Assembly (NCBI RefSeq): GCF_000734015.1
Contig: NZ_CP008796.1
Location: forward strand, 1 to 32,000
DNA length: 32,000 nt
Origin: Thermodesulfobacterium commune DSM 2178
GTDB lineage: Bacteria > Desulfobacterota > Thermodesulfobacteria > Thermodesulfobacteriales > Thermodesulfobacteriaceae
Reading direction: 5' to 3'
The position numbers and the translations under genes are program-made. A model generated the notes under the pieces. The model saw only the letters and a program-made list of their open reading frames with translations, searched no databases and had not been told where the DNA came from. Below, one piece after another: positions 1 to 18,733 of the stretch (positions are counted from its first letter, which is position 1; the number at the start of each line of letters is the position of its first letter).

Positions 1-898
1 GGATGAGTGTGTGGAGTTAGGGAAGTTTACGCTTAAGGCGTTTAAGGATTTGGTGTTAAGTAATCCTCAGTATGTGGAGTTGATAAAGGGGGACATTTAC
101 AAGGTGGTGACGAATTATTTGGGAACGGTGGATGAGGCTGGGAAGGTAACCTATTATGATGGTACACAGGTGTTTGTGGACACGAAGGGTAATGAGATAG
201 GTAGGTTTAGTGGTAAGGAGTATTTGGAGTGGATAGCAGAGAGGACGTTGCCGTGGAGTTATCAGAAGGCACCGTACATTAAGAAGTTAGGTTGGAAGGG
301 GATAGTGGATGGAGAGGGAACGAGTTTATACAGTGTGGGGCCGCTAGCGAGGTTTAACGTGGGGAATGGATTTGACACACCTGGTGCGCAGGAGGCGTAT
401 GAGGAGATGGTAGAGTTTTTTGGAGGGAAGCCTGTGCATAACATACTGGGTTATCACTGGGCGAGGGCGATAGAGTTGTTACATTGTGCGGAGAAGGTGA
501 AGGAGCTTGCGTCAGACGAGAGTATCACAGCTCCTGACGTGAGGCAGGAGTTAGGTGAGGCATTAGGAGAGGGAGTAGGGATTGTTGAGGCAGCGAGGGG
601 AACGCTTATTCATCATTACAAGACAGACAGTAAGGGTATAGTAACTGACGCAAACATCATAGTTGCAACCACCCACAACAAAGGGTCTATAAACATAGCG
701 ATCAAGAGGGCGGCAGAGAATTTTATCAAGGAAGGAAAGGTAGATGAGGGAATTTTAAACTTGGTAGAGATGGCTTACAGGCCCTATGACCTTTGTCTTG
801 CCTGTTCTACCCACACCTTACCTGGGAAGTTGCCTGTGCAGATAGACATCTACACCAAGGACGGAGAGCTGGTAAAAAGTTTGAGAAACTTTAAATAA
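1..898 (+). CDS. mvhA: [NiFe]-hydrogenase large subunit, Mvh/group 3c type. C-terminal ~298 codons of a gene that begins upstream of the window; paralog of 4473..5936.
   Basis: The frame is open from nt 2 to TAA at 896-898. It carries the C-terminal Ni-binding motif D-L-C-L-A-C-S-T-H followed by a 27 aa tail of the protease-cleaved type. By hand alignment it has 15 substitutions and no indels against 5039..5936. Confidence 0.9.
   Translation, partial: DECVELGKFTLKAFKDLVLSNPQYVELIKGDIYKVVTNYLGTVDEAGKVTYYDGTQVFVDTKGNEIGRFSGKEYLEWIAERTLPWSYQKAPYIKKLGWKGIVDGEGTSLYSVGPLARFNVGNGFDTPGAQEAYEEMVEFFGGKPVHNILGYHWARAIELLHCAEKVKELASDESITAPDVRQELGEALGEGVGIVEAARGTLIHHYKTDSKGIVTDANIIVATTHNKGSINIAIKRAAENFIKEGKVDEGILNLVEMAYRPYDLCLACSTHTLPGKLPVQIDIYTKDGELVKSLRNFK
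1..898 (+). repeat. Direct repeat copy A (3' part of mvhA), partner at 5039..5936
   Basis: Constant offset of 5038 nt, 15 mismatches in 898 nt, no indels. Identity ends exactly at the stop codon, and the downstream sequences are unrelated. Confidence 0.95.
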
Positions 899-1238: not shown

Positions 1239-2144
1239 ATGCCAAAGGTTGGGGTTTATGTATGTCATTGTGGTGAGAACATTAAAGGTGGGCTTAATAT
1301 CCAGGAGTTGGTAGAGTTTGCCAAAACATTGCCTGATGTGACAGTAGTGAGAGATTATTTCTTCATGTGTTCTGACCCTGGGCAGGAGTTGATCAAGAAT
1401 GATATTAAAGAGGGTTTAGTTGACAGGGTGGTAGTTGCTGCTTGTACTCCAAGAACTCATGAGCCTATTTTTAGGGCAGCGGTAGAGTCAGCAGGTTTAA
1501 ACAAGTATTTTTGTGAAATAGCTAACATAAGAGACCAGAATACCTGGGCTCACTGGGGGAAGATTAAAGAGGCTACAGACAAGGCTAAAAGGATCATAAA
1601 AAGCGCGGTAGCTAAGGTAAGATTGGCTGAACCTTTAGAAGACCGTTTTGAACCTATGGAAAAGTCTGTTTTGGTGGTAGGTGGTGGAATTGCAGGTATG
1701 TTTGCTGCTTTAGACTTAGCTAACATGGGTTTAAAGGTTTATCTGGTAGAGAAAAGGCCTTCTATAGGCGGGAACATGGCTATGCTTGACAAAACGTTCC
1801 CGACTATGGACTGTTCGGCTTGAATACTCACCCCCAAGATGGGCGAGGTCGCCCAGCATCCTAACATCGAACTTATCACCTATGCCGAGGTAGAAGATGT
1901 TAAGGGTTATGTAGGTAACTTTGAAGTTACCATAAGAAAAAAAGCCAGGTATGTAGACTGGGATAAGTGTACAGGTTGTGGTCACTGTATGAACATTTGT
2001 CCTTCCAAGGCTCCAAACGAGTTTAACCTTGGTCTGGATAAGAGACCGGCTATTTATATACAATTTCCTCAGGCAGTGCCGAAGTTTCAGGAGGTAATGA
2101 AGCAGACAGCGTTAGCAGAGGTAGCACCGTTTCCACTTGACTAA
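1239..2144 (+). CDS. hdrA: Heterodisulfide reductase subunit A-like flavoprotein with an in-frame TGA (Sec) at 1821-1823. Only ~301 codons, so the C-terminal half of a normal HdrA is missing.
   Basis: RBS AAGGGGG lies upstream. Motifs present: N-terminal VCHCGENI Cys domain, FAD fingerprint VVGGGIAG, conserved block LDKTFPTMDCSA-[TGA]-ILTPKM, inserted ferredoxin CTGCGHCMNICP, then FPQAVP. ORF-track pieces 1239..1823 and 1839..2144 share one frame. HdrA-like sequence ends near 2081 and TAA is at 2142-2144. Confidence 0.8.
1840..1855 (+). promoter_or_regulatory. Putative bacterial SECIS hairpin for the hdrA UGA
   Basis: UGGGCG-AGGU-CGCCCA, a 6 bp GC-rich stem starting 16 nt after the UGA. The loop and closing base read GGUC. 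Confidence 0.55.
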
Positions 2145-2162: not shown

Positions 2163-3065
2163 ATGAAGAGGGTAGGATTGTTTTTAGGATGTAACATACC
2201 GTTGAGGAGGCCGGATATAGAGTATTCGATGAGGTATTTGTTGAAGGAGTTGGGGGTGGAGGTAGTGGATTTAGAGGGAGCGACATGTTGTCCGGCGTTT
2301 GGGACGATGCCATCGGTGGATTTAGTGGGGTGGTGTGTGGGATCAGCGTGGAACATGGCGATAGCAGAGGGTAAGGGATTAGAGGTGATGGTAACGGGGT
2401 GTGGTAGTTGTTATGGGAGTTTGAATGAGGCGAGATATCACATGGAGAAGCATCCTGAGATAAAGGAGAAGGTTAACGAGATACTGGGAAGTGTGGGTAT
2501 GAGGTATGAGGGGAAGGTGAAGGTGTACAACATATACAATTATATATATGATTTTATTGGGTTAGAGGAGTTGAGGAAGGCGGTGAAGTATCCGTTGAAT
2601 GGGATGGTATGTGGGGTGCAGGTAGGGTGTCACAATTTATGGCCGAGCAAGGCGTATCCGGCGAATGATGAGAATACGTTTCAGCCGAGGAGGTTGAGGG
2701 AGATATGTGAGGCGTTAGGAGGGGTAGCGCCGTGGTATAGCATGATGACAGATTGTTGTGGTATGGGTGCGTTGGGTAGTTTAGCGAGGGACAAGTCTTG
2801 GAGTTTGTTTAAGAAGAAGGCGAGTAAGATGATAGAGGAGATAAATCCTGAGGTATTTGTGACGGGGTGTAGTAGTTGTTTGTTGAGGTTTGACAACGAT
2901 CAGGCTCAGATGAAGAAGGAGGGGGTAATAGATTTTGAGGTACCGGCGGTGCATGTGGCGCAGTTGGTTGCGTTGGCGTTGGGGGCGGAGCCGGAGAAGG
3001 CGGTAGGTTTGGCAGAGGTGCCAGTAGACAAGGTGGTAGAAAAAATAAGAGCAGGAGGTAAGTGA
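2163..3065 (+). CDS. hdrB: HdrB-like protein with two CCG (Cys-rich) domains
   Basis: Strong RBS AAAGGAGGG. First domain: LGC ... ATCCPAFG ... TGCGSC. Second domain: VGCHN ... TDCCGMG ... TGCSSC. Confidence 0.85.
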   Translation: MKRVGLFLGCNIPLRRPDIEYSMRYLLKELGVEVVDLEGATCCPAFGTMPSVDLVGWCVGSAWNMAIAEGKGLEVMVTGCGSCYGSLNEARYHMEKHPEIKEKVNEILGSVGMRYEGKVKVYNIYNYIYDFIGLEELRKAVKYPLNGMVCGVQVGCHNLWPSKAYPANDENTFQPRRLREICEALGGVAPWYSMMTDCCGMGALGSLARDKSWSLFKKKASKMIEEINPEVFVTGCSSCLLRFDNDQAQMKKEGVIDFEVPAVHVAQLVALALGAEPEKAVGLAEVPVDKVVEKIRAGGK

Positions 3066-3066
3066 T

Positions 3067-3477
3067 ATGAGTTGGGAGCCAAAGATAGTGGTTATAGCTT
3101 GTAACTGGTGTACCTATGCTGCGGCAGACCTGGCAGGTAGTTTAAGATATAGTTATCCACCTACAGCATATATAGTAAGGGTTCCCTGTAGTGGTAGGGT
3201 AGAGCCTGAGTTTATAGTAGAGGCTTTAAAAACAGGAGCAGACGCTGTGTTAGTGGGTGGCTGACCTCCTGGGGACTGTCATTACCGGTCAGGTAATTAC
3301 AAGGCATTGAGGCGTTTTAAGCTTTTGAAGAGGGTGTTAGAGGAGTTGGGAGTGGAAGGAGACAGGGTGAGGCTTGAGTGGATATCAGGTAGTGAGGGTA
3401 AGAAGTTTGCGGACATAATAACGGAGATGGATGCCAAGGTAAGGGAACTAGGACCAAATCCAATGAAGGGGGTATAG
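3067..3477 (+). CDS. mvhD: Mvh hydrogenase delta subunit (MvhD) with an in-frame TGA (Sec) at 3262-3264
   Basis: RBS AGGAGG. N-terminus IVVIACNWCTYAAADLAG, then VPCSGR. The conserved G-C-x-x-G-D-C-H-Y block reads G-G-[TGA]-P-P-G-D-C-H-Y. The frame continues to TAG at 3475-3477. Confidence 0.85.
3278..3300 (+). promoter_or_regulatory. Putative bacterial SECIS hairpin for the mvhD UGA
   Basis: GU-C-AUUACC / GGUCA loop / GGUAAU-U-AC, starting 13 nt after the UGA. Confidence 0.55.
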
Positions 3478-3480
3478 GAG

Positions 3481-4437
3481 ATGAGTAAGCCTAAGTTAGC
3501 ATATTACCTGGCAGGAGGATGTGCAGGTTGTGATATAAGTTTGGTAGATTTAGCTGATTTTTTGGTGGATGTGGTTAGTGCGGTGGACATAGTGTTTTTT
3601 GCGCCTACACTTGTGGATGTGAAGTATAAGGATTTTGAGGCATTGCCAGATGGGTCGGTGGATGTGGGTTTGTTGACAGGTAACATAAGGAACAAGGAAC
3701 ATGAGCATATGGCGAAGGTGATGAGGGCGAAGTGTAAGGTGTTGATAGCGTATGGTATATGTGCGAGTTTAGGTGGTATCAAGGGTTTGGTTAATTTGTA
3801 TAGTAATCAGGAGTTGTTGGAGAAGGCGTATAGGGATACGTTTAGTACAGACAATCCTACAGGGGAGTTACCGAGTCCCAAGTATGTGGTAGATGGGAAG
3901 TATGAGTTGGAGTTGCCGGAGTTGACGGAGGCCAGAACGTTGGATCAGGTGGTGGAGGTGGATTATTACATAGGAGGGTGTCCGCCGCATTATGAGCATG
4001 TGAAGGCGGCGTTGGTTGCGTTGTTAGAGGGTAAGTTACCGCCGAGGGGTAGTTGGATAACGATGGGGCATGCGGTGTGTGAGGTATGTTCGAGGAACCC
4101 TGTGTTGAGGGGGGAGAAGAAGAAGCCTGTATTAGAGGTTAGGAGGGTGATAGAAGGGGGAGTAGAGGAGGAGGCATGTTTGCTTGAGGCGGGGTATTTG
4201 TGTTTAGGTCCTGTTACACAGGGAGACTGTGGAGCGAGTTGTTTGAAGGTGAACGTGCCGTGTAGGGGATGTGGAGGGCCGATACCAGGGGTAAGGGATT
4301 ATGGTTTGAGGGCGATAAGTGCGATAGCGAGTGCATTGGAAAACGAGGAGTTGGTAGACAGGATAGAGGACCCTGTGAGGTTGTTTTACCGGTATAGTTT
4401 GCCAGGGTCTATGATAGGGAAGAGGCTTGGAAAGTAG
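3481..4437 (+). CDS. mvhG: [NiFe]-hydrogenase small subunit, Mvh type (MvhG)
   Basis: N-terminal GGCAGCDIS motif, further Cys clusters (GGCPPH, CEVCS, CxGPVTQGDCGASC, PCRGCGGP), and its position between mvhD and mvhA. Confidence 0.9.
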   Translation: MSKPKLAYYLAGGCAGCDISLVDLADFLVDVVSAVDIVFFAPTLVDVKYKDFEALPDGSVDVGLLTGNIRNKEHEHMAKVMRAKCKVLIAYGICASLGGIKGLVNLYSNQELLEKAYRDTFSTDNPTGELPSPKYVVDGKYELELPELTEARTLDQVVEVDYYIGGCPPHYEHVKAALVALLEGKLPPRGSWITMGHAVCEVCSRNPVLRGEKKKPVLEVRRVIEGGVEEEACLLEAGYLCLGPVTQGDCGASCLKVNVPCRGCGGPIPGVRDYGLRAISAIASALENEELVDRIEDPVRLFYRYSLPGSMIGKRLGK

Positions 4438-4472: not shown

Positions 4473-5936
4473 ATGCAGAGGATAGAGATAAATCCCATGA
4501 CAAGGCTTGAGGGTCATGGGAAGATAACGATATTTTTGGATGACAAGGGTAATGTAGACAATGCCTTTTTACAGGTAGTAGAGTTTATGGGATATGAGAA
4601 GTTTTTGATAGGTATGCCTATAGAGGAGGTGCCAAGGACAGTAAGCACGATCTGTGGCGTCTGAAGGGGTGTACATTTTATGGCCTCGTTGAAGGCCGCA
4701 GATGAGGTATATGGGGTAAAGCCTACGGAGACGGCGAGGAAGTTGAGGGAGTTGTTTTATTATGCGCATTATGTAGAGGACCACATGGAGATCATATATG
4801 CGTTGGGGTTGCCTGATTTTGTTTGTGGGCCTACGGCATCTCCAGCAGAGAGGAACTTGGTTGGGTTGATTATGAAGGTGGGAGTTGATGTAGGAAGAGA
4901 TGTTTTGAAGAAGAGATTTGCTGCTGTTAGGATCTTTGAGATCCTTGGAGGAAGGCCAAGCCATCCAGTGGCAGCGATACCCGGGGGATGGAGCAAGAGG
5001 CTGAAGGAGGAGGAAAGGCAGGAGATACTGAGGTATGCGGATGAGTGTGTGGAGTTAGCGAAGTTTACGCTTAAGGCGTTTAAGGATTTGGTGTTAAGTA
5101 ATCCTCAGTATGTGGAGTTGATAAAGGGGGACATTTACAAGGTGGTAACGAATTATTTGGGAACGGTGGATGAGGCTGGGAAGGTAACCTATTATGATGG
5201 TACACAGGTGTTTGTGGACACGAAGGGTAATGAGATAGGTAGGTTTAGTGGTAAGGAGTATTTGGAGTGGATAGCAGAGAGGACGTTGCCGTGGAGTTAT
5301 CAGAAGGCACCGTACATTAAGAAGTTAGGTTGGAAGGGGATAGTGGATGGAGAGGGAACGAGTTTATACAGTGTGGGGCCGCTAGCGAGGTTTAACGTGG
5401 GGAATGGATTTGACACACCTGGTGCGCAGGAGGCGTATGAGGAGATGGTAGAGTTTTTTGGAGGGAAGCCTGTGCATAACATACTGGGTTATCACTGGGC
5501 GAGGGCGATAGAGTTGTTGCATTGTGCGGAGAAGGTGAAGGAGCTTGCGTCAGACGAGAGTATCACAGCTCCTGATGTGAGGCAGGAGTTAGGTGAGGCA
5601 TTAGGAGAGGGAGTAGGGATTGTTGAGGCAGCGAGAGGAACGCTTATCCATCATTACAAGACAGACAGTAAGGGTATAGTAACTGACGCAAACATCATAG
5701 TTGCGACCACCCACAACAAAGGGCCTATGAATATAGCGATCAAGAGGGCGGCAGAGAATTTTATCAAGGAAGGAAAGGTAGATGAGGGAATTTTGAACCT
5801 GGTAGAGATAGCTTACAGGCCCTATGACCTTTGTTTTGCCTGTTCTACTCACACCTTACCTGGGAAGTTGCCTGTGCAGATAGACATCTACACCAAGGAC
5901 GGAGAGCTGGTAAAAAGTTTGAGAAACTTTAAATAA
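4473..5936 (+). CDS. mvhA: [NiFe]-hydrogenase large subunit, Mvh type, with an in-frame TGA (Sec) at 4662-4664 inside the N-terminal nickel-binding motif
   Basis: RBS GAGGAGGGG. N-terminus INPMTRLEGHGKI. The RxCGxCxxxH motif reads T-I-C-G-V-[TGA]-R-G-V-H. ORF-track pieces 4473..4664 and 4680..5936 share one frame. The C-terminal motif is DLCFACSTH plus a cleavable tail. Confidence 0.85.
4681..4698 (+). promoter_or_regulatory. Possible SECIS hairpin for the mvhA UGA
   Basis: UGGCCU-CGUUGA-AGGCCG, 5 GC pairs plus one U-G pair, starting 16 nt after the UGA. The loop contains GU but not GGUC. Confidence 0.4.
5039..5936 (+). repeat. Direct repeat copy B (3' part of mvhA), partner at 1..898
   Basis: See copy A. 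Ten of the 15 differences are synonymous and five change residues (G/A, S/P, I/M, M/I, L/F). Confidence 0.95.
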
Positions 5937-5962: not shown

Positions 5963-5995
5963 AAAAGGGGGCTTTATAGCCCCCTTTTTTATTTT
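5963..5995 (+). terminator. Rho-independent terminator after mvhA
   Basis: AAAA-GGGGGC-TTTATA-GCCCCC-TTTTTTATTTT. Confidence 0.75.
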
Positions 5996-6018: not shown

Positions 6019-6468
6019 ATGCAGAAAAAGGCCATAGTTATAGGAATAGGCAACCCTAACTTTAAAGACGATGGGGTTGGGTATAAGATAGTAGAACAGC
6101 TGGAAGGTTTGGTAGATACTGTTTGTTTGCTTAACACTGACTTAAAGGTAATAGATGTGATGTTGGGGTATGACGTTGCTGTCATAGTTGATGGGGTAAA
6201 GGTAGGGGTTGAACCTGGGACGATAGTCGAGATTGACCCGTTTAAAACCTTTGATAAGGTTTATGCCAGCGGTACTCATAGTCTTACGGTTTTTGAGGTA
6301 ATAAGGATTGGTTATCAAGTTTTTCAAGAGGAAATGCCTAAGGAGATAAAGATCATCGGGGTAGAGGTAGAAGATATAGATACTTTGGATAGAGATTGTA
6401 GCCCTAAGGTTAAGGCAGCCATTCCTAAGGTAGTAGAGATTATCAAAGAATATTTAGGACTAATTTAG
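6019..6468 (+). CDS. Hydrogenase maturation endopeptidase (HycI/FrhD/HyaD family)
   Basis: N-terminus AIVIGIGNPNFKDDGVG, later AVIVDG and SGTHSL motifs. It lies directly downstream of mvhA. Confidence 0.85.
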   Translation: MQKKAIVIGIGNPNFKDDGVGYKIVEQLEGLVDTVCLLNTDLKVIDVMLGYDVAVIVDGVKVGVEPGTIVEIDPFKTFDKVYASGTHSLTVFEVIRIGYQVFQEEMPKEIKIIGVEVEDIDTLDRDCSPKVKAAIPKVVEIIKEYLGLI

Positions 6469-14530: not shown

Positions 14531-17500
14531 TTACTGGGCTGTTCTTTTACTCGCAAAAAATTCCTTTACCTGTTCGGCAAAAGCCTCTATCCTCATCCTG
14601 GTGCCAAGGGACTTCTGTCCGTCGCAAGGAACGGTAAGCACAGGTAACCTTTTCCCTTCTCCTTCTTTAATCCTTTTTAACAGGGCAGAAACTACATTCC
14701 CTGGCATACAGGCAAAAGGAATAACGTTTACTATTCCCGAAACCCCGTTATGGGTATACTCTACCGCCTTTCCTACAGAAAGCAACACCTCCCCTCCTTC
14801 ATACCTTATGTCCACATACCTTTGGGTAAGCCTCATCAGCTCCTCAACCGGCAACTCTTCAGCTGTGTCAAGAACATCTTTAAAAACAGATATAAACTTT
14901 TCTTCTTCCCACCTCAGGTATCTGCTTTCAAGCACATACCTGAAGTAGGTCTTAAAAAGTCCAAGCCTTTTAGCCCAGTTTTTTGAGGTATAGTTGATAA
15001 AATGGATCCATTCGGTGATAGGAGGAAGCCAGACCTCCAGACCTAAGTCTTCTAAAAAACTGTATAGGTCTTCGTTAGCAAACCGGTTGCTTCTGACATA
15101 GATCTCTCCTACCACCCCTACCTTGGGTTTTTTCCTGGTATCAACTTCTAAACCGGCAAACCGGTTTTTAAGGTCTAAGAGCACAGAAAGGAGATCTTCT
15201 CCTTTTTCTATGGCTTTTTCTATCTGATTAAGACCCTCTTGGTATAACTTTTCTACCTCTTGTTTGTCTTTCGCATATGGTCTTATTTCCCTAAGAAGTT
15301 TATTTAGCACGTCTACCGCTACTATCCCTTTCCAGGCAACCTTCATAAAGTTTCTGCCTAAAAGGTCTAAATCCTGGTAAAAACTCATGTCCTGTTGCAG
15401 AGAATAGACAGGAAGTTTAACGTTTAAGTCTCGTAAGATCTTCTGATGAAGTTTGTTGTACTGACCAAACCTGCAAGGCCCACCGCTGTTTGGCATAAAA
15501 AATACGCTTTTTTCAGGGTCAAAGTCTGGTTGATTTATCAGCTTGATGAGGTCCCCTGTGGTAAGGATGGTAGGATAGCACTCCTTGCCTGAGGTATACC
15601 TTCTCCCAAGCTCAAGGCTTTGTTCGTCTGGTTCTGGAAGCACCTTGGCCTCAACCCCGCAGGCTCTGAAAGCCGCTGCCAGGGCTACCGCATGGTCGCA
15701 CATGTAAGGAATGTAGATGGTCCTTTTTTCTTTGGGGGTTGCCTTAAGGAAAGTAAAACTTCTCTTTAGCTCGTAAGGTTTCACCTTATCCCTGATACTG
15801 TCTACAAAGGCCTCTAATCTTGTTACCACCCCAGCCTCAGCGCTGTGTTCATCTACCTCTATCTCTATGAAAGGTTTACCTCCCATCAGTTCCTCAAAAA
15901 AGTGCTGGATAAAAGAGTCTGGCCCACAAGAGAAGTTGGTAAAAAACACGGGAAAAAGGTTAGGGGTTTCCCTTATAAGATGGGCTGCCAGCAAAAACCT
16001 TTGCCCATATTCCCAGTACATCTCCGAAAGAGGTTCAAAGACCTTTGGATTGTCTAACTCTTCTAAAGGTAGCATGTCTACAGGCAGGCCGACTATACCT
16101 AATTTTTTAATTTTATAGTGTATGCCTAAGTTAGCACCTGGGTCAAAGGCATTGTAAGGCCTTCCTACGATGACAAGCACCACGTCCTCTTTAAACTGAG
16201 ACAAAATCTCTTTTCCTCTCTGTTTTAGCCAGTGATGAAACTCTCTCTGGGCTTCCTCTCCTATCTTCCAGGCCCTTTTAGCCTCTTTTTCTGAGACCCC
16301 AAGCATCCTTGCCAGGTCTTTAACTTCCTGGTTTATCAAAAAAGCAGGACGCCCTAAGTGCAACACCGGATTTATTACCTTTACCCCAAGGTCTTCGAAC
16401 CTGAAGGTTGCAGGACTTATCCAAGGAACGCTCTGTACATAGGGACATACCTTGCCTACCTCAAAAGCCGGATGCTCAGGAGGAAGGTCGGTTATCTGCG
16501 GAAGAAAAAGGGTTTTAACCCCTTTGTCTAAAAGCTCTTTGATATGCCCTATGGCTATCTTTATAGGAAAACAGGGCTCACCTGGGGTTATCTCACAGCC
16601 TACTTTGATGATTTTTTTAGAGGTCTGAGACGAAAGCACCACCTGATAACCTAACTCCTGAAAAAAGGTGGCAAAAAGAGGCAACCACTCATAAAACTGA
16701 AGGATAAGAGGAATACCGATGGTTTTGTCCTGGCTTTTTTCTTTTTCCACAGGTTTTACATAGGAGATAAGCTTTTCAAATCGCTCTAAGGTAAGGTTGG
16801 GGATGTTTTCCTGAGGTTTTCTCTGGTCAACCTCATACTTTTCGCACCTTCCTCCGTAGTAATAAGGGAGAGACCCATCTATCGTTACCCTGTGGATCTC
16901 ACACTGGTTAGGACATTCTTTGCACTCAAAGGCCTGGATCTGATAGTTAACCTTGGTTAGGTCAAACCCTTTAAACCGGGTTTGTCCCCGGGTTTCTTCC
17001 TTAGCAAGAAGGGCTACTCCAATAGCTCCTGTGACCTCATGGTGAGGAGGCACTATCACCGGTTTGCCAAGCACTTTTTCAAAGGCAGCCACCACCCCCT
17101 GGTTAAAAGCCACCGCCCCCTGGAAAAACACCTTTTTCCCTATTCTTCTGTCCTCTACCACCTTATTCAGGTAGTTATGCACTATGGCATAACAAAGCCC
17201 TGCAATCAGGTCTTCCTTAGGGAGGCCTTGCTGCTGGTAGTGTAAAAGGTCTGACTGCATAAAAACAGTGCATCTTTCTCCCAGCTTAAGCGGGGCTGAG
17301 CTCTTTAAGGCGATTTCTCCAAACTTTTCTATCGGGACCCCAAGCTTTACCGCCTGTTCCTGAAGAAAAGACCCTGTGCCTGCTGCACAGGCTTTGTTCA
17401 TCGTAAAGTCTGAGATGGTTCCATTTTCTAAGTATATATATTTAGAGTCTTGCCCTCCTATCTCAAAGATGGTGTCAACTTCTGGGTCTATGAAAAGGGC

Positions 17501-18733
17501 TCCGTAAGCCTGTGCGGTGATCTCATTTCTTACGACATCAGCCCCGATAAAGTCTCCTATCAGGTATCTTCCAGAACCTGTGGTCCCAACACCTTTTACC
17601 ACCACGTTTTCCGGAAGCTGTTTTTTTAACTCTAAAAGGCCTTTTTTGATGCTTTCAAGAGGTTTTCCCTGATGAAGAAGATAAACCTTGGCTATAAGTT
17701 TTCCTTCCTGGTTTATGGCAACAAGCTTGGTGCTTACCGACCCCACATCCACTCCAAGCCATACCTCCTGGGGTTTTCCCGGTGAGGCGGTAGTTTCTAT
17801 CAAAAACCTCTGTTTAAGCCTTTCTGAGATCTCAAGCGACTTAAAAGGTGTTAACACCTCATACCTTGGCGGAGAATAGGTTCTTTCTTTAAGATAGGCC
17901 CTTAAGAGGTCAGACCCTCGATATTCTGATGCGGCTTTACCTTCAAGCCCATAGAGGGCAGCCCCTATCGCCCCCATGATCCTGAAATGCTCAGGTATGA
18001 TAAGCTCATCGTCCTTTAGTCTGAAGATTTCCCTTATCGCCCTTCTTACCCCTAAGTTTGCCGCAACCCCTCCCTGAAAAACCAAAGGAGGAAGGATCTC
18101 CCTTCCCTTGGCCAAGTTGCTTCTCAGGTTTCTGATGATGGCAAAACAAAGCCCTGCGATGATTTCCTGGTCAGGCACCGCTGCCTGCTGAAGGTGTATC
18201 ATGTCAGATTTGGCAAAAACGGTGCATCTTCCTGCTATTCTTGGTACATTTTGAGCCTCTACAGCAAGCCGAGAAAACTCTTCTATCGTATACCCAAGCC
18301 TTGCAGCCTGTTGCTCTAAAAAAGAACCTGTACCTGCAGCACACAGGGTGTTTAACGCAAAGTCCTCTATCTCAGGCACACCCCTTTCATGGGTGATGAA
18401 AATAAGCTTTGAGTCCTCGCCTCCGATGTCTATGATCGTCTTTACCTCAGGATGAAAAAAGGTTGCTGCCTTGGCATGAGCCATCACCTCGTTTACAAAG
18501 GCACACCCAAGGATCTGAGAGATGGTTTTACCAGCCGTTCCGGTGCAGGTAATCCCAGAGAGACTTTCTTTTCCAAACCCCTTTTCCACCTCGGTTAAAA
18601 GCCTTTCTGCCGTTTCTATAGGCTGACCGTGGGTTTTTTCGTATCTCCAGAAAAGAAGGTTTTTGTTGTCATCAAGGACTGCTACCTTGGCTGTCCCTGA
18701 CCCTACGTCAAGCCCTACATATCGTGTCATCAA
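14531..18733 (-). CDS. Giant fusion protein: two BcrAD/BadFG-type (2-hydroxyacyl-CoA dehydratase activase-like) ATPase modules plus a large dehydratase-component-like C-terminal region
   Basis: The motifs GLDVGSGTAKV ... CAAGTGSFLEQQA and GVDVGSVSTKL ... CAAGTGSFLQEQA each occur once (the tandem activase modules). A Cys-rich linker reads FECKECPNQCEIH. The whole 1400 aa forms one uninterrupted ORF. Confidence 0.85.
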   Translation of the reverse strand: MMTRYVGLDVGSGTAKVAVLDDNKNLLFWRYEKTHGQPIETAERLLTEVEKGFGKESLSGITCTGTAGKTISQILGCAFVNEVMAHAKAATFFHPEVKTIIDIGGEDSKLIFITHERGVPEIEDFALNTLCAAGTGSFLEQQAARLGYTIEEFSRLAVEAQNVPRIAGRCTVFAKSDMIHLQQAAVPDQEIIAGLCFAIIRNLRSNLAKGREILPPLVFQGGVAANLGVRRAIREIFRLKDDELIIPEHFRIMGAIGAALYGLEGKAASEYRGSDLLRAYLKERTYSPPRYEVLTPFKSLEISERLKQRFLIETTASPGKPQEVWLGVDVGSVSTKLVAINQEGKLIAKVYLLHQGKPLESIKKGLLELKKQLPENVVVKGVGTTGSGRYLIGDFIGADVVRNEITAQAYGALFIDPEVDTIFEIGGQDSKYIYLENGTISDFTMNKACAAGTGSFLQEQAVKLGVPIEKFGEIALKSSAPLKLGERCTVFMQSDLLHYQQQGLPKEDLIAGLCYAIVHNYLNKVVEDRRIGKKVFFQGAVAFNQGVVAAFEKVLGKPVIVPPHHEVTGAIGVALLAKEETRGQTRFKGFDLTKVNYQIQAFECKECPNQCEIHRVTIDGSLPYYYGGRCEKYEVDQRKPQENIPNLTLERFEKLISYVKPVEKEKSQDKTIGIPLILQFYEWLPLFATFFQELGYQVVLSSQTSKKIIKVGCEITPGEPCFPIKIAIGHIKELLDKGVKTLFLPQITDLPPEHPAFEVGKVCPYVQSVPWISPATFRFEDLGVKVINPVLHLGRPAFLINQEVKDLARMLGVSEKEAKRAWKIGEEAQREFHHWLKQRGKEILSQFKEDVVLVIVGRPYNAFDPGANLGIHYKIKKLGIVGLPVDMLPLEELDNPKVFEPLSEMYWEYGQRFLLAAHLIRETPNLFPVFFTNFSCGPDSFIQHFFEELMGGKPFIEIEVDEHSAEAGVVTRLEAFVDSIRDKVKPYELKRSFTFLKATPKEKRTIYIPYMCDHAVALAAAFRACGVEAKVLPEPDEQSLELGRRYTSGKECYPTILTTGDLIKLINQPDFDPEKSVFFMPNSGGPCRFGQYNKLHQKILRDLNVKLPVYSLQQDMSFYQDLDLLGRNFMKVAWKGIVAVDVLNKLLREIRPYAKDKQEVEKLYQEGLNQIEKAIEKGEDLLSVLLDLKNRFAGLEVDTRKKPKVGVVGEIYVRSNRFANEDLYSFLEDLGLEVWLPPITEWIHFINYTSKNWAKRLGLFKTYFRYVLESRYLRWEEEKFISVFKDVLDTAEELPVEELMRLTQRYVDIRYEGGEVLLSVGKAVEYTHNGVSGIVNVIPFACMPGNVVSALLKRIKEGEGKRLPVLTVPCDGQKSLGTRMRIEAFAEQVKEFFASKRTAQ

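Follow-up and report, generated by a model that had tools for sequence, protein, structure and literature searches.

A putative selenocysteine codon in the N-terminal nickel-binding motif of MvhA, a group 3c hydrogenase large subunit of Thermodesulfobacterium commune

Does a UGA codon in the middle of a metal-binding motif terminate the protein, or does it specify selenocysteine (Sec, U)? This question is raised by mvhA, the gene for a [NiFe]-hydrogenase large subunit of Thermodesulfobacterium commune DSM 2178. The stretch of DNA analyzed here, called the window in the following, comprises the first 32,000 nucleotides of contig NZ_CP008796.1 (assembly GCF_000734015.1) read on the forward strand; coordinates refer to the window. 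An inspection of the letters and their open reading frames (ORFs) without database searches, from here on the sequence-only reading, had proposed that the TGA at positions 4662-4664 may be decoded as selenocysteine. Our analysis leads to the same answer: the UGA is very probably a selenocysteine codon within a single mvhA gene.

An in-frame UGA at the second cysteine of the N-terminal motif

Public annotation treats the one mvhA gene as two proteins. The 63-amino-acid (aa) "hypothetical protein" WP_200870709.1 is identical to the first piece and the 418-aa "Ni/Fe hydrogenase subunit alpha" WP_200870710.1 is identical to the second, and comparable 63-aa "hypothetical proteins" exist for Thermodesulfovibrio (e.g., WP_201783818.1 and WP_281754521.1). 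Translation bears out the earlier claim that the two pieces belong together: the ORFs 4473..4664 and 4680..5936 lie in the same frame, the TGA at 4662-4664 is the sole interruption, and readthrough at codon 64 gives a single gene of 487 codons (4473..5936, + strand) whose 487-aa product is otherwise free of frame disruptions. Within 4620-4700 the codons read ACG ATC TGT GGC GTC TGA AGG GGT GTA CAT TTT ATG GCC TCG TTG AAG GCC GCA, and the translated context of the UGA is PRTVSTICGV-[TGA]-RGVHFMASLK.

The UGA lies where the sequence-only reading had placed it, namely at the second cysteine (Cys) of the N-terminal nickel-binding motif. This motif, T-I-C61-G-V-U64-R-G-V-H68 (4647..4676, + strand), aligns with RICGICQVAH of 5ODC_F, and as U64 replaces the second Cys of the CXXC signature (C61-G-V-U64) the protein is of the N-terminal CXXU type. 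The C-terminal nickel-binding motif D-L-C-F-A-C-S-T-H (5826..5852, + strand) retains both cysteine ligands, again as previously noted, and is followed by a 27-aa extension. It is all-Cys (Cys-x-x-Cys) in every ortholog of the TGA type. Hydrogenases of the canonical Hys/Vhu/Fru type carry Sec at the first C-terminal Cys (UxxC), where MvhA reads C-F-A-C.

When solved structures were searched with Cys put at residue 64, the best relative of the mvhA product proved to be MvhA 5ODC_F (E=7e-108, residues 2-484); 9SW2_F also matched (2e-98), and further group 3 large subunits came next. The best NCBIfam model is VhuA with 382.6 bits, which is below the equivalog cutoff of 800, so that mvhA encodes a member of the family and not a curated equivalog; the Pfam match is NiFeSe_Hases. 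The neighboring genes identify the mvhA product as an Hdr-linked hydrogenase of group 3c. In the alignments, residue 64 falls on Cys64 of 5ODC_F and, with a constant offset of +15, on Cys79 of Escherichia coli HyaB. The ligand column concerned is indeed a different one from the canonical C-terminal Sec site. In the textbook assignment, Cys68 of the D. gigas enzyme bridges nickel and iron, and this agrees with the bridging position predicted for the Sec of CXXU motifs. In the literature, the second N-terminal Cys is the bridging ligand and the Sec of the N-terminal CXXU motif is predicted to bridge Ni and Fe likewise (PMC13582414). The alignments strongly suggest that selenium would bridge nickel and iron in MvhA.

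Conservation of the UGA codon and of the hairpin behind it

Orthologs had been named by the sequence-only reading as the place to check the proposal, and they support it. The codon column was read at the DNA level from contigs with truncated homologs, from a genome scan, from a metagenome pattern scan and from representatives that appeared truncated at the C-terminus. Thirteen distinct sequences, obtained from isolates and metagenomes independent of one another, have TGA at the residue-64 column of mvhA, while every other homolog read in DNA carries TGT or TGC. TGA types occur in Thermodesulfobacterium (the window, L007 and L036), in Thermodesulfatator (L011, L015, L012, L016 and L033), in a Thermodesulfovibrio-like clade, so designated after the NCBI assignment of the 63-aa fragments (L027, L029, L030, L034 and P0137-P0140), and in two distant group 3c genes, L037 (106-1698, closest to proteins of Dehalococcoidia) and L039 (116-1648). 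Cys types comprise the paralog on the metagenomic contig L001 described below, T. hveragerdense, two other metagenome-assembled genomes of Thermodesulfobacteriota, four Desulfurobacteriaceae/Thermovibrio genomes (Aquificota) and two archaea. In a neighbor-joining tree the four Cys forms from Thermodesulfobacteriota are nested within the TGA clade, which suggests that Sec has been replaced by Cys several times. A further match of the metagenome pattern scan (L031) lies outside any hydrogenase and was discarded as a chance hit. Glycine at the second position after U64 was also considered as a correlate of Sec and rejected: it is present, as RGV or PGA, in 13 of 13 TGA types, yet it also occurs in 55 of 139 Cys-type homologs.

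The gene is under strong purifying selection on both sides of the UGA. The nonsynonymous divergence (dN) amounts to 0.013-0.078 for codons 1-63 and to 0.07-0.19 for codons 65-180, synonymous divergence (dS) ranges from 0.5 to saturation, and dN/dS is far below 1.

In bacteria, Sec is inserted by a standard route that involves SelB and an in-frame hairpin behind the UGA, the selenocysteine insertion sequence (SECIS). A SECIS-like hairpin, UGGCCU-CGUUGA-AGGCCG, is present at 4681..4698 (+ strand), at the distance of 16 nt from the TGA given by the sequence-only reading. Behind a spacer at 4665-4680, the arms at 4681-4686 and 4693-4698 form a stem of 6 bp that encloses a loop of 6 nt (4687-4692), and the whole element is encoded by the codons for Met-Ala-Ser-Leu-Lys-Ala-Ala. 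SelB, together with GTP and Sec-tRNASec, would bind this hairpin and bring Sec to the ribosome.

When 11 distinct sequences of the TGA type are aligned, all 66 pair cells are standard pairs. Stem pair 2 alternates between G-C (six sequences) and A-U (five), and the closing pair between C-G (seven), U-G (three) and U-A (one). Neither score, for pairing or for covariation, was matched by any of 500 column shuffles, and with the 3' arm displaced by 1-3 nt pairing falls to only 14-50%. All 13 TGA types have a hairpin energy between -7.8 and -9.3 kcal/mol, as compared with +2.2 to -4.2 kcal/mol in nine of ten Cys types; the tenth Cys type is the recently duplicated Cys paralog, which has kept an identical "fossil" hairpin. 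Synonymous codon choice tells the same two groups apart. At invariant amino acids of the TGA set, synonymous-codon identity is 0.81 for residues 68-77 versus a mean of 0.46 outside residues 65-79, and the former region holds the highest 8-codon window of the whole gene; the Cys set has no such peak (0.45 versus 0.44). Two candidates for an additional lower stem were rejected. The pairing CAUUU/AGAUG (4674-4678 with 4700-4704) is broken in L028 and L033, and the helix GUCUG/CAGAU proposed by RNAalifold, which includes the UGA, is not conserved and competes with the former for one 3' strand. Rfam held no relevant family for the hairpin region; the only match was a sub-threshold chance similarity to a flavivirus stem-loop.

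These data bear directly on the reading embodied in the annotation, according to which translation stops at 4664, a separate 418-aa protein starts from ATG 4680 and the two pieces assemble in the manner of VhuA and VhuU of Methanococcus. Such an arrangement is not without precedent, as split large subunits exist in nature and are represented by the NCBIfam model VhuU; gene callers and NCBI annotate two proteins, and in the window an ATG does follow 15 nt past the stop. The sequence-only reading had named this outcome as one of those that would overturn its proposal. It does not hold up among the orthologs, where Thermodesulfatator and the Thermodesulfovibrio-like sequences have ACA or ACG (Thr) in place of ATG 4680 and L039 has CTG, while the GTG used as a start by the callers in orthologs corresponds to GTA 4671 in the window, which is not a start codon. 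A real stop at codon 64 would also cost the enzyme its fourth metal ligand, as the break strips one of the four ligands from both pieces, and it would leave the conserved covarying hairpin and the synonymous constraint confined to TGA types unexplained. The stretch from the UGA (4664) to ATG 4680 shows no terminator-like site. We regard a split gene as exceedingly improbable and retain a selenocysteine codon in a continuous gene as our interpretation.

The codons of the hairpin specify the peptide Ala-Ser-X-Lys-Ala, which is conserved in Cys types too, and Cys-type genes form two to six of the six pairs. We infer that this region may constitute a latent SECIS that eases switches from Cys to Sec. 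The distant mvhA sequences of L037 and L039 read RICGV-TGA-PGAHH, followed by a GGCCU/AGGCC stem with a spacing identical to that of the hairpin in the window. The 118 other listed relatives of the L037 gene cover the whole query, which indicates that they are uninterrupted Cys-type genes. Together, this suggests that TGA and stem in L037 and L039 arose independently or were transferred, aided by the latent SECIS.

The selenocysteine-type operon and its all-cysteine neighbor

The mvhA gene is part of an operon with the order hdrA-(hdrC)-hdrB-mvhD-mvhG-mvhA-protease gene, as judged by NCBIfam and Pfam matches. All genes lie on the + strand. Immediately upstream of mvhA, mvhG (3481..4437; NCBIfam VhuG, Pfam Oxidored_q6) encodes the hydrogenase small subunit and is preceded by mvhD (3067..3477; Pfam FlpD, E=1.8e-52). 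The latter contains an in-frame UGA at 3262-3264 (VGG-U-PPGDCH) with a hairpin at 3281-3297, whereas the Cys paralog of mvhD reads VGGCHPGDCH at this place. The preceding gene, hdrB (2163..3065; TIGR03288, Pfam CCG), ends in a genuine TGA stop, and TGA terminates six of the 27 long ORFs of the window, hdrB included; an altered genetic code was therefore dismissed. The first gene, hdrA (1239..2144; positions 1-286 of the 777 positions of the HdrA2 model), is interrupted in frame by the UGA at 1821-1823 (DCSA-U-IL), behind which a hairpin lies at 1840-1855. Downstream of mvhA, an intrinsic terminator-like hairpin (5963..5988, + strand) with an 11-bp stem and a subsequent T run precedes the gene for a hydrogenase maturation endopeptidase (6019..6468; TIGR00072 with 89.6 bits versus a cutoff of 47.45, Pfam HycI), which would process the C-terminus of MvhA.

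The hairpins in hdrA (UGGGCG-AGGU-CGCCCA) and mvhD (AUUACC-GGUCA-GGUAAU) each start 16 nt after the UGA. Like that of mvhA they have a 6-bp stem and an identical spacer, the loop starts at nucleotide +26, and the loops contain GU. Both are conserved in other TGA-type loci, that of hdrA in L012, L027 and L029. The corresponding Cys columns of HdrA and MvhD are among the known Sec sites and selenoprotein families (PMC13188914). Judged by these sequence features, hdrA and mvhD are two further selenoprotein genes of the same operon.

The wider arrangement is visible on L001, a metagenomic contig of 154 kb that is 99.0-99.2% identical to the window over the aligned blocks. It carries two operons in tandem, the upstream one of which is an all-Cys hdrA-hdrC-hdrB-mvhD-mvhG-mvhA set. 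The downstream copy has one TGA each in hdrA, mvhD and mvhA, and the protease gene comes after it. Over ~3.9 kb, from the end of hdrC to mvhA, the DNA of the two operons is 95.4% identical. The Cys-type mvhA of L001 encodes 487 aa with TGT at the residue-64 column, and the all-Cys paralog protein is 96% identical to the Sec-type MvhA. In the window, the 3' part of the Cys-type mvhA paralog, with which the upstream Cys-type hdrACB-mvhDGA operon ends, is present at 2..898 (+ strand) and is followed by a strong terminator-like hairpin at 923-946; the region of its C-terminal motif (VEMAYRPYDLCLACSTH) matches T. commune AIH04800.1. An AT-rich spacer of 340 bp (899-1238), presumably containing the promoter of the Sec-type operon, separates it from hdrA.

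In the window, the Sec-type hdrA is truncated and runs on in frame into the final ~20 codons of hdrC. Relative to positions 5738-7405 of L001, 1668 bp are deleted, with the junction at ~2081-2084 showing 4 bp of microhomology; hdrC is lost almost entirely and hdrA by about two-thirds. Both genes are intact in the related contigs L001-L005. The deletion could be either a real event at the strain level or an assembly artefact. This deletion and the intact Cys-type paralog next to it would be in line with the notion that the TGA in mvhA itself stems from pseudogene decay or from a sequencing or assembly error. We give this notion next to no credence: the identical TGA occurs in 24 independently assembled contigs with the exact protein and in 12 further distinct sequences of other genera and samples, and purifying selection is strong on both sides (dN 0.01-0.19 versus dS of at least 0.5) in a gene with no other disruption of the frame.

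The comparison of the Sec-type mvhA with its Cys paralog shows how the difference between the two copies is distributed. They diverge by 6.5% overall, with a peak of 11 differences per 30 nt centered on codon 64 and zero differences over 31 nt that include the hairpin (compared stretch 4644-4704, gene nucleotides 172-232). This would be in line with gene conversion that homogenizes the mvhA copies while selection keeps the ligand codon distinct. Among related strains and contigs, all mosaics of the hdrA, mvhD and mvhA sites occur (loci L002, L005, L013, L027, L029, L034 and L036); they read, in this order, UUU, CUU, CCU or UCU, along with cases of mvhD-U together with mvhA-C; L005 and L034 represent the combination Cys, Cys, Sec. 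Also note that the isolate T. hveragerdense DSM 12571 combines mvhD-TGA with mvhA-TGT. Part of the Sec/Cys mosaics may be due to collapsed or chimeric assembly of the near-identical tandem operons.

As a side observation unrelated to mvhA, the - strand of the window contains an ORF of 1400 aa (14531-18733). The L001 counterpart has BcrAD/BadFG ATPase domains, DUF2229 and a faint match to HGD-D and resembles an unusually large activator/dehydratase fusion.

Decoding of the UGA and comparison with known systems

If the UGA is decoded as proposed, its product would be a 487-aa MvhA whose N-terminal motif carries Sec64 where the second Cys would otherwise stand. Insertion of NiFe(CN)2CO would be followed by C-terminal cleavage through the adjacent endopeptidase. 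The mature active site would contain a selenolate at the Ni-Fe bridge, as far as its geometry can be deduced, while the usual C-terminal position of selenium would remain Cys. Together with MvhG, MvhD and HdrABC the protein would form an H2-oxidizing, electron-bifurcating complex in a thermophilic sulfate reducer. The ~95% identical all-Cys operon upstream probably serves as a selenium-independent backup, like vhc for vhu in Methanococcus, and by the same analogy the tandem operons may be regulated in dependence on selenium.

Several observations weigh against this interpretation. No tRNA-Sec gene was detected in the window or in 18 further loci, which make up a small fraction of any genome, and no selA, selB, selC or selD was present in the window or the further loci examined. 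Four of the six stem pairs of the mvhA hairpin are invariant, such that covariation concerns two pairs only, and the loop is variable (CGUUGA, CAGUGA, CGGCGA and similar) without a strict motif. Single-sequence folding of 4656-4730, 4659-4723 and 4659-4710 was no better than that of shuffled sequences (z -0.20 to +0.34), and over longer stretches the minimum free energy favors another, non-conserved helix (CCUCGUUG/…GAUGAGG). A single-sequence fold is not evidence in its own right; the support for the hairpin is comparative. Through the hdrA-hdrC truncation the Sec-type operon may be partly defective in this window. Finally, the engineered C79U variant of E. coli hydrogenase 1 reached 13% of the native activity and gained no O2 tolerance (PMC8020662); in view of this poor performance, a catalytic benefit of selenium at the bridging position is not evident. 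With respect to the Sec machinery, indirect support comes from three UGA genes with matching hairpins in one operon, from the mvhD TGA in T. hveragerdense DSM 12571 and from the literature: all genomes that carry selC*, including those of Thermodesulfobacteria and Thermodesulfovibrio, have been reported with complete selABCD (PMC5389517).

The same report is the origin of another explanation, namely that the UGA is decoded wholly or partly as Cys, for example by a selC* tRNA-Cys, which resembles tRNASec, resulting in a [NiFe] enzyme or in a mixture of [NiFe] and [NiFeSe] forms. Genes for selC* tRNA-Cys have been described in Thermodesulfobacteria and Thermodesulfovibrio, and in a test system the selC* form with a UCA anticodon inserts Cys at UGA (PMC5389517). 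The strain mosaics of Cys and Sec at three sites, moreover, indicate that both residues are evidently tolerated. However, the UCA anticodon, CysRS* and SelB* have been described for subgroups of Desulfobacterales and Syntrophobacterales and not for Thermodesulfobacteria (PMC5389517), selC* was not seen in the window or the loci examined, and the existence of a separate Cys-type operon argues against a UGA gene that supplies the Cys form. Decoding as Cys thus appears very unlikely. A combination of both modes can also be envisaged, in which one gene would give both enzyme forms, with Sec inserted through SelB and the hairpin when selenium is available, resulting in a bridging selenolate, and Cys via selC* tRNA-Cys when it is scarce, and in which the hairpin codons would act as a latent SECIS enabling repeated moves between Cys and Sec. 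Such facultative decoding would agree with the strain mosaics and with TGA and hairpin having appeared independently in the Dehalococcoidia-like lineage; we consider it unlikely. Decoding as Sec remains our preferred interpretation.

To our knowledge, biochemical and structural insight into [NiFeSe] hydrogenases all concerns selenium as a terminal nickel ligand. We know of no natural enzyme with selenium at the Ni-Fe bridge that has been purified and of no biochemical test of an N-terminal CXXU protein; the engineered E. coli C79U variant is the only experimental proxy for selenium at the bridging position that we are aware of. The locus described here is tractable, as it combines a cultivated thermophilic host, an enzyme class with solved structures and a neighboring all-Cys paralog as a natural control. 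It could help to find out why selection favors selenium at a particular ligand position and whether selenium tunes the electron-bifurcating Mvh-Hdr complex.

The sequence-only reading had left undecided whether the N-terminal variant had been described before. It has, as CXXU motifs were noted in 2011 and 2026. Baltazar et al. 2011, as cited in PMC13582414, reported two sequences of Group 1 and one of Group 3, and the 2026 survey itself lists 27 CXXU-type sequences of Group 4, with Groups 1-3 excluded (PMC13582414). Natural cases of bridging Sec were termed "purported" by Evans et al. 2021 (PMC8020662). A 2026 review of prokaryotic selenoproteomes mentions MvhA/VhuA/VhuU only with UxxC (PMC13188914), and MvhA2 of D. 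autotrophicum has been described as Sec-containing, with the position not stated. Our literature search found no paper that links Thermodesulfobacterium to a selenocysteine hydrogenase of the N-terminal type. The N-terminal CXXU type is thus already noted in print, rare and uncharacterized, and mvhA is a well-supported further member as far as sequence evidence goes. New in the present analysis are the conservation at the level of a clade, the common SECIS geometry, the all-Cys C-terminal motif, the tandem Cys/Sec operons and the mis-annotation. As the annotation splits mvhA into proteins of 63 and 418 aa, surveys of hydrogenases and selenoproteomes miss the N-terminal CXXU class.

Canonical [NiFeSe] hydrogenases (Desulfomicrobium baculatum and Desulfovibrio vulgaris Hys in Group 1a, Methanococcus Vhu/Fru in Group 3) resemble MvhA in that one Cys ligand of nickel is encoded by UGA, in that bacterial recoding proceeds via a SECIS hairpin within the coding region and in that a Cys-type isoenzyme is also present. 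In these enzymes Sec stands at the first C-terminal Cys (UxxC), which is a terminal nickel ligand (PMC13582414, PMC13188914, PMC8020662), whereas in MvhA this position is Cys and Sec would occupy the second N-terminal Cys, the Ni-Fe bridging ligand. The published N-terminal CXXU sequences share the Sec column with MvhA; they, too, are predicted to have a bridging Sec, are known from sequence alone and are often mis-annotated as truncated or split. Those of Group 4 are membrane-bound, in contrast to the Group 3c Mvh enzyme linked to Hdr. E. coli HyaB C79U (Evans et al. 2021, PMC8020662) has selenium at the equivalent ligand position. It is an artificial substitution in an O2-tolerant uptake enzyme of Group 1d and almost inactive at 10% O2 (PMC8020662), while MvhA is a natural, cytoplasmic and bifurcation-linked enzyme of Group 3c that would have co-evolved with Sec.

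With respect to gene organization, the closest parallel is provided by Methanococcus voltae and M. maripaludis, where vhu/vhc and fru/frc constitute paired Sec and all-Cys operons for Hdr-associated hydrogenases and where HdrA and VhuD/MvhD are also selenoproteins. The window differs from this system in its bacterial SECIS, which resides in the coding region and not in the 3' untranslated region, in the tandem arrangement of ~95% identical operons and in the ligand position of Sec. With respect to structure, the closest solved relative is MvhADG-HdrABC of Methanothermococcus thermolithotrophicus (5ODC), whose gene partners are alike. The 5ODC enzyme is archaeal and has Cys at all four ligand positions, whereas MvhA belongs to a sulfate reducer and would carry Sec at one of them.

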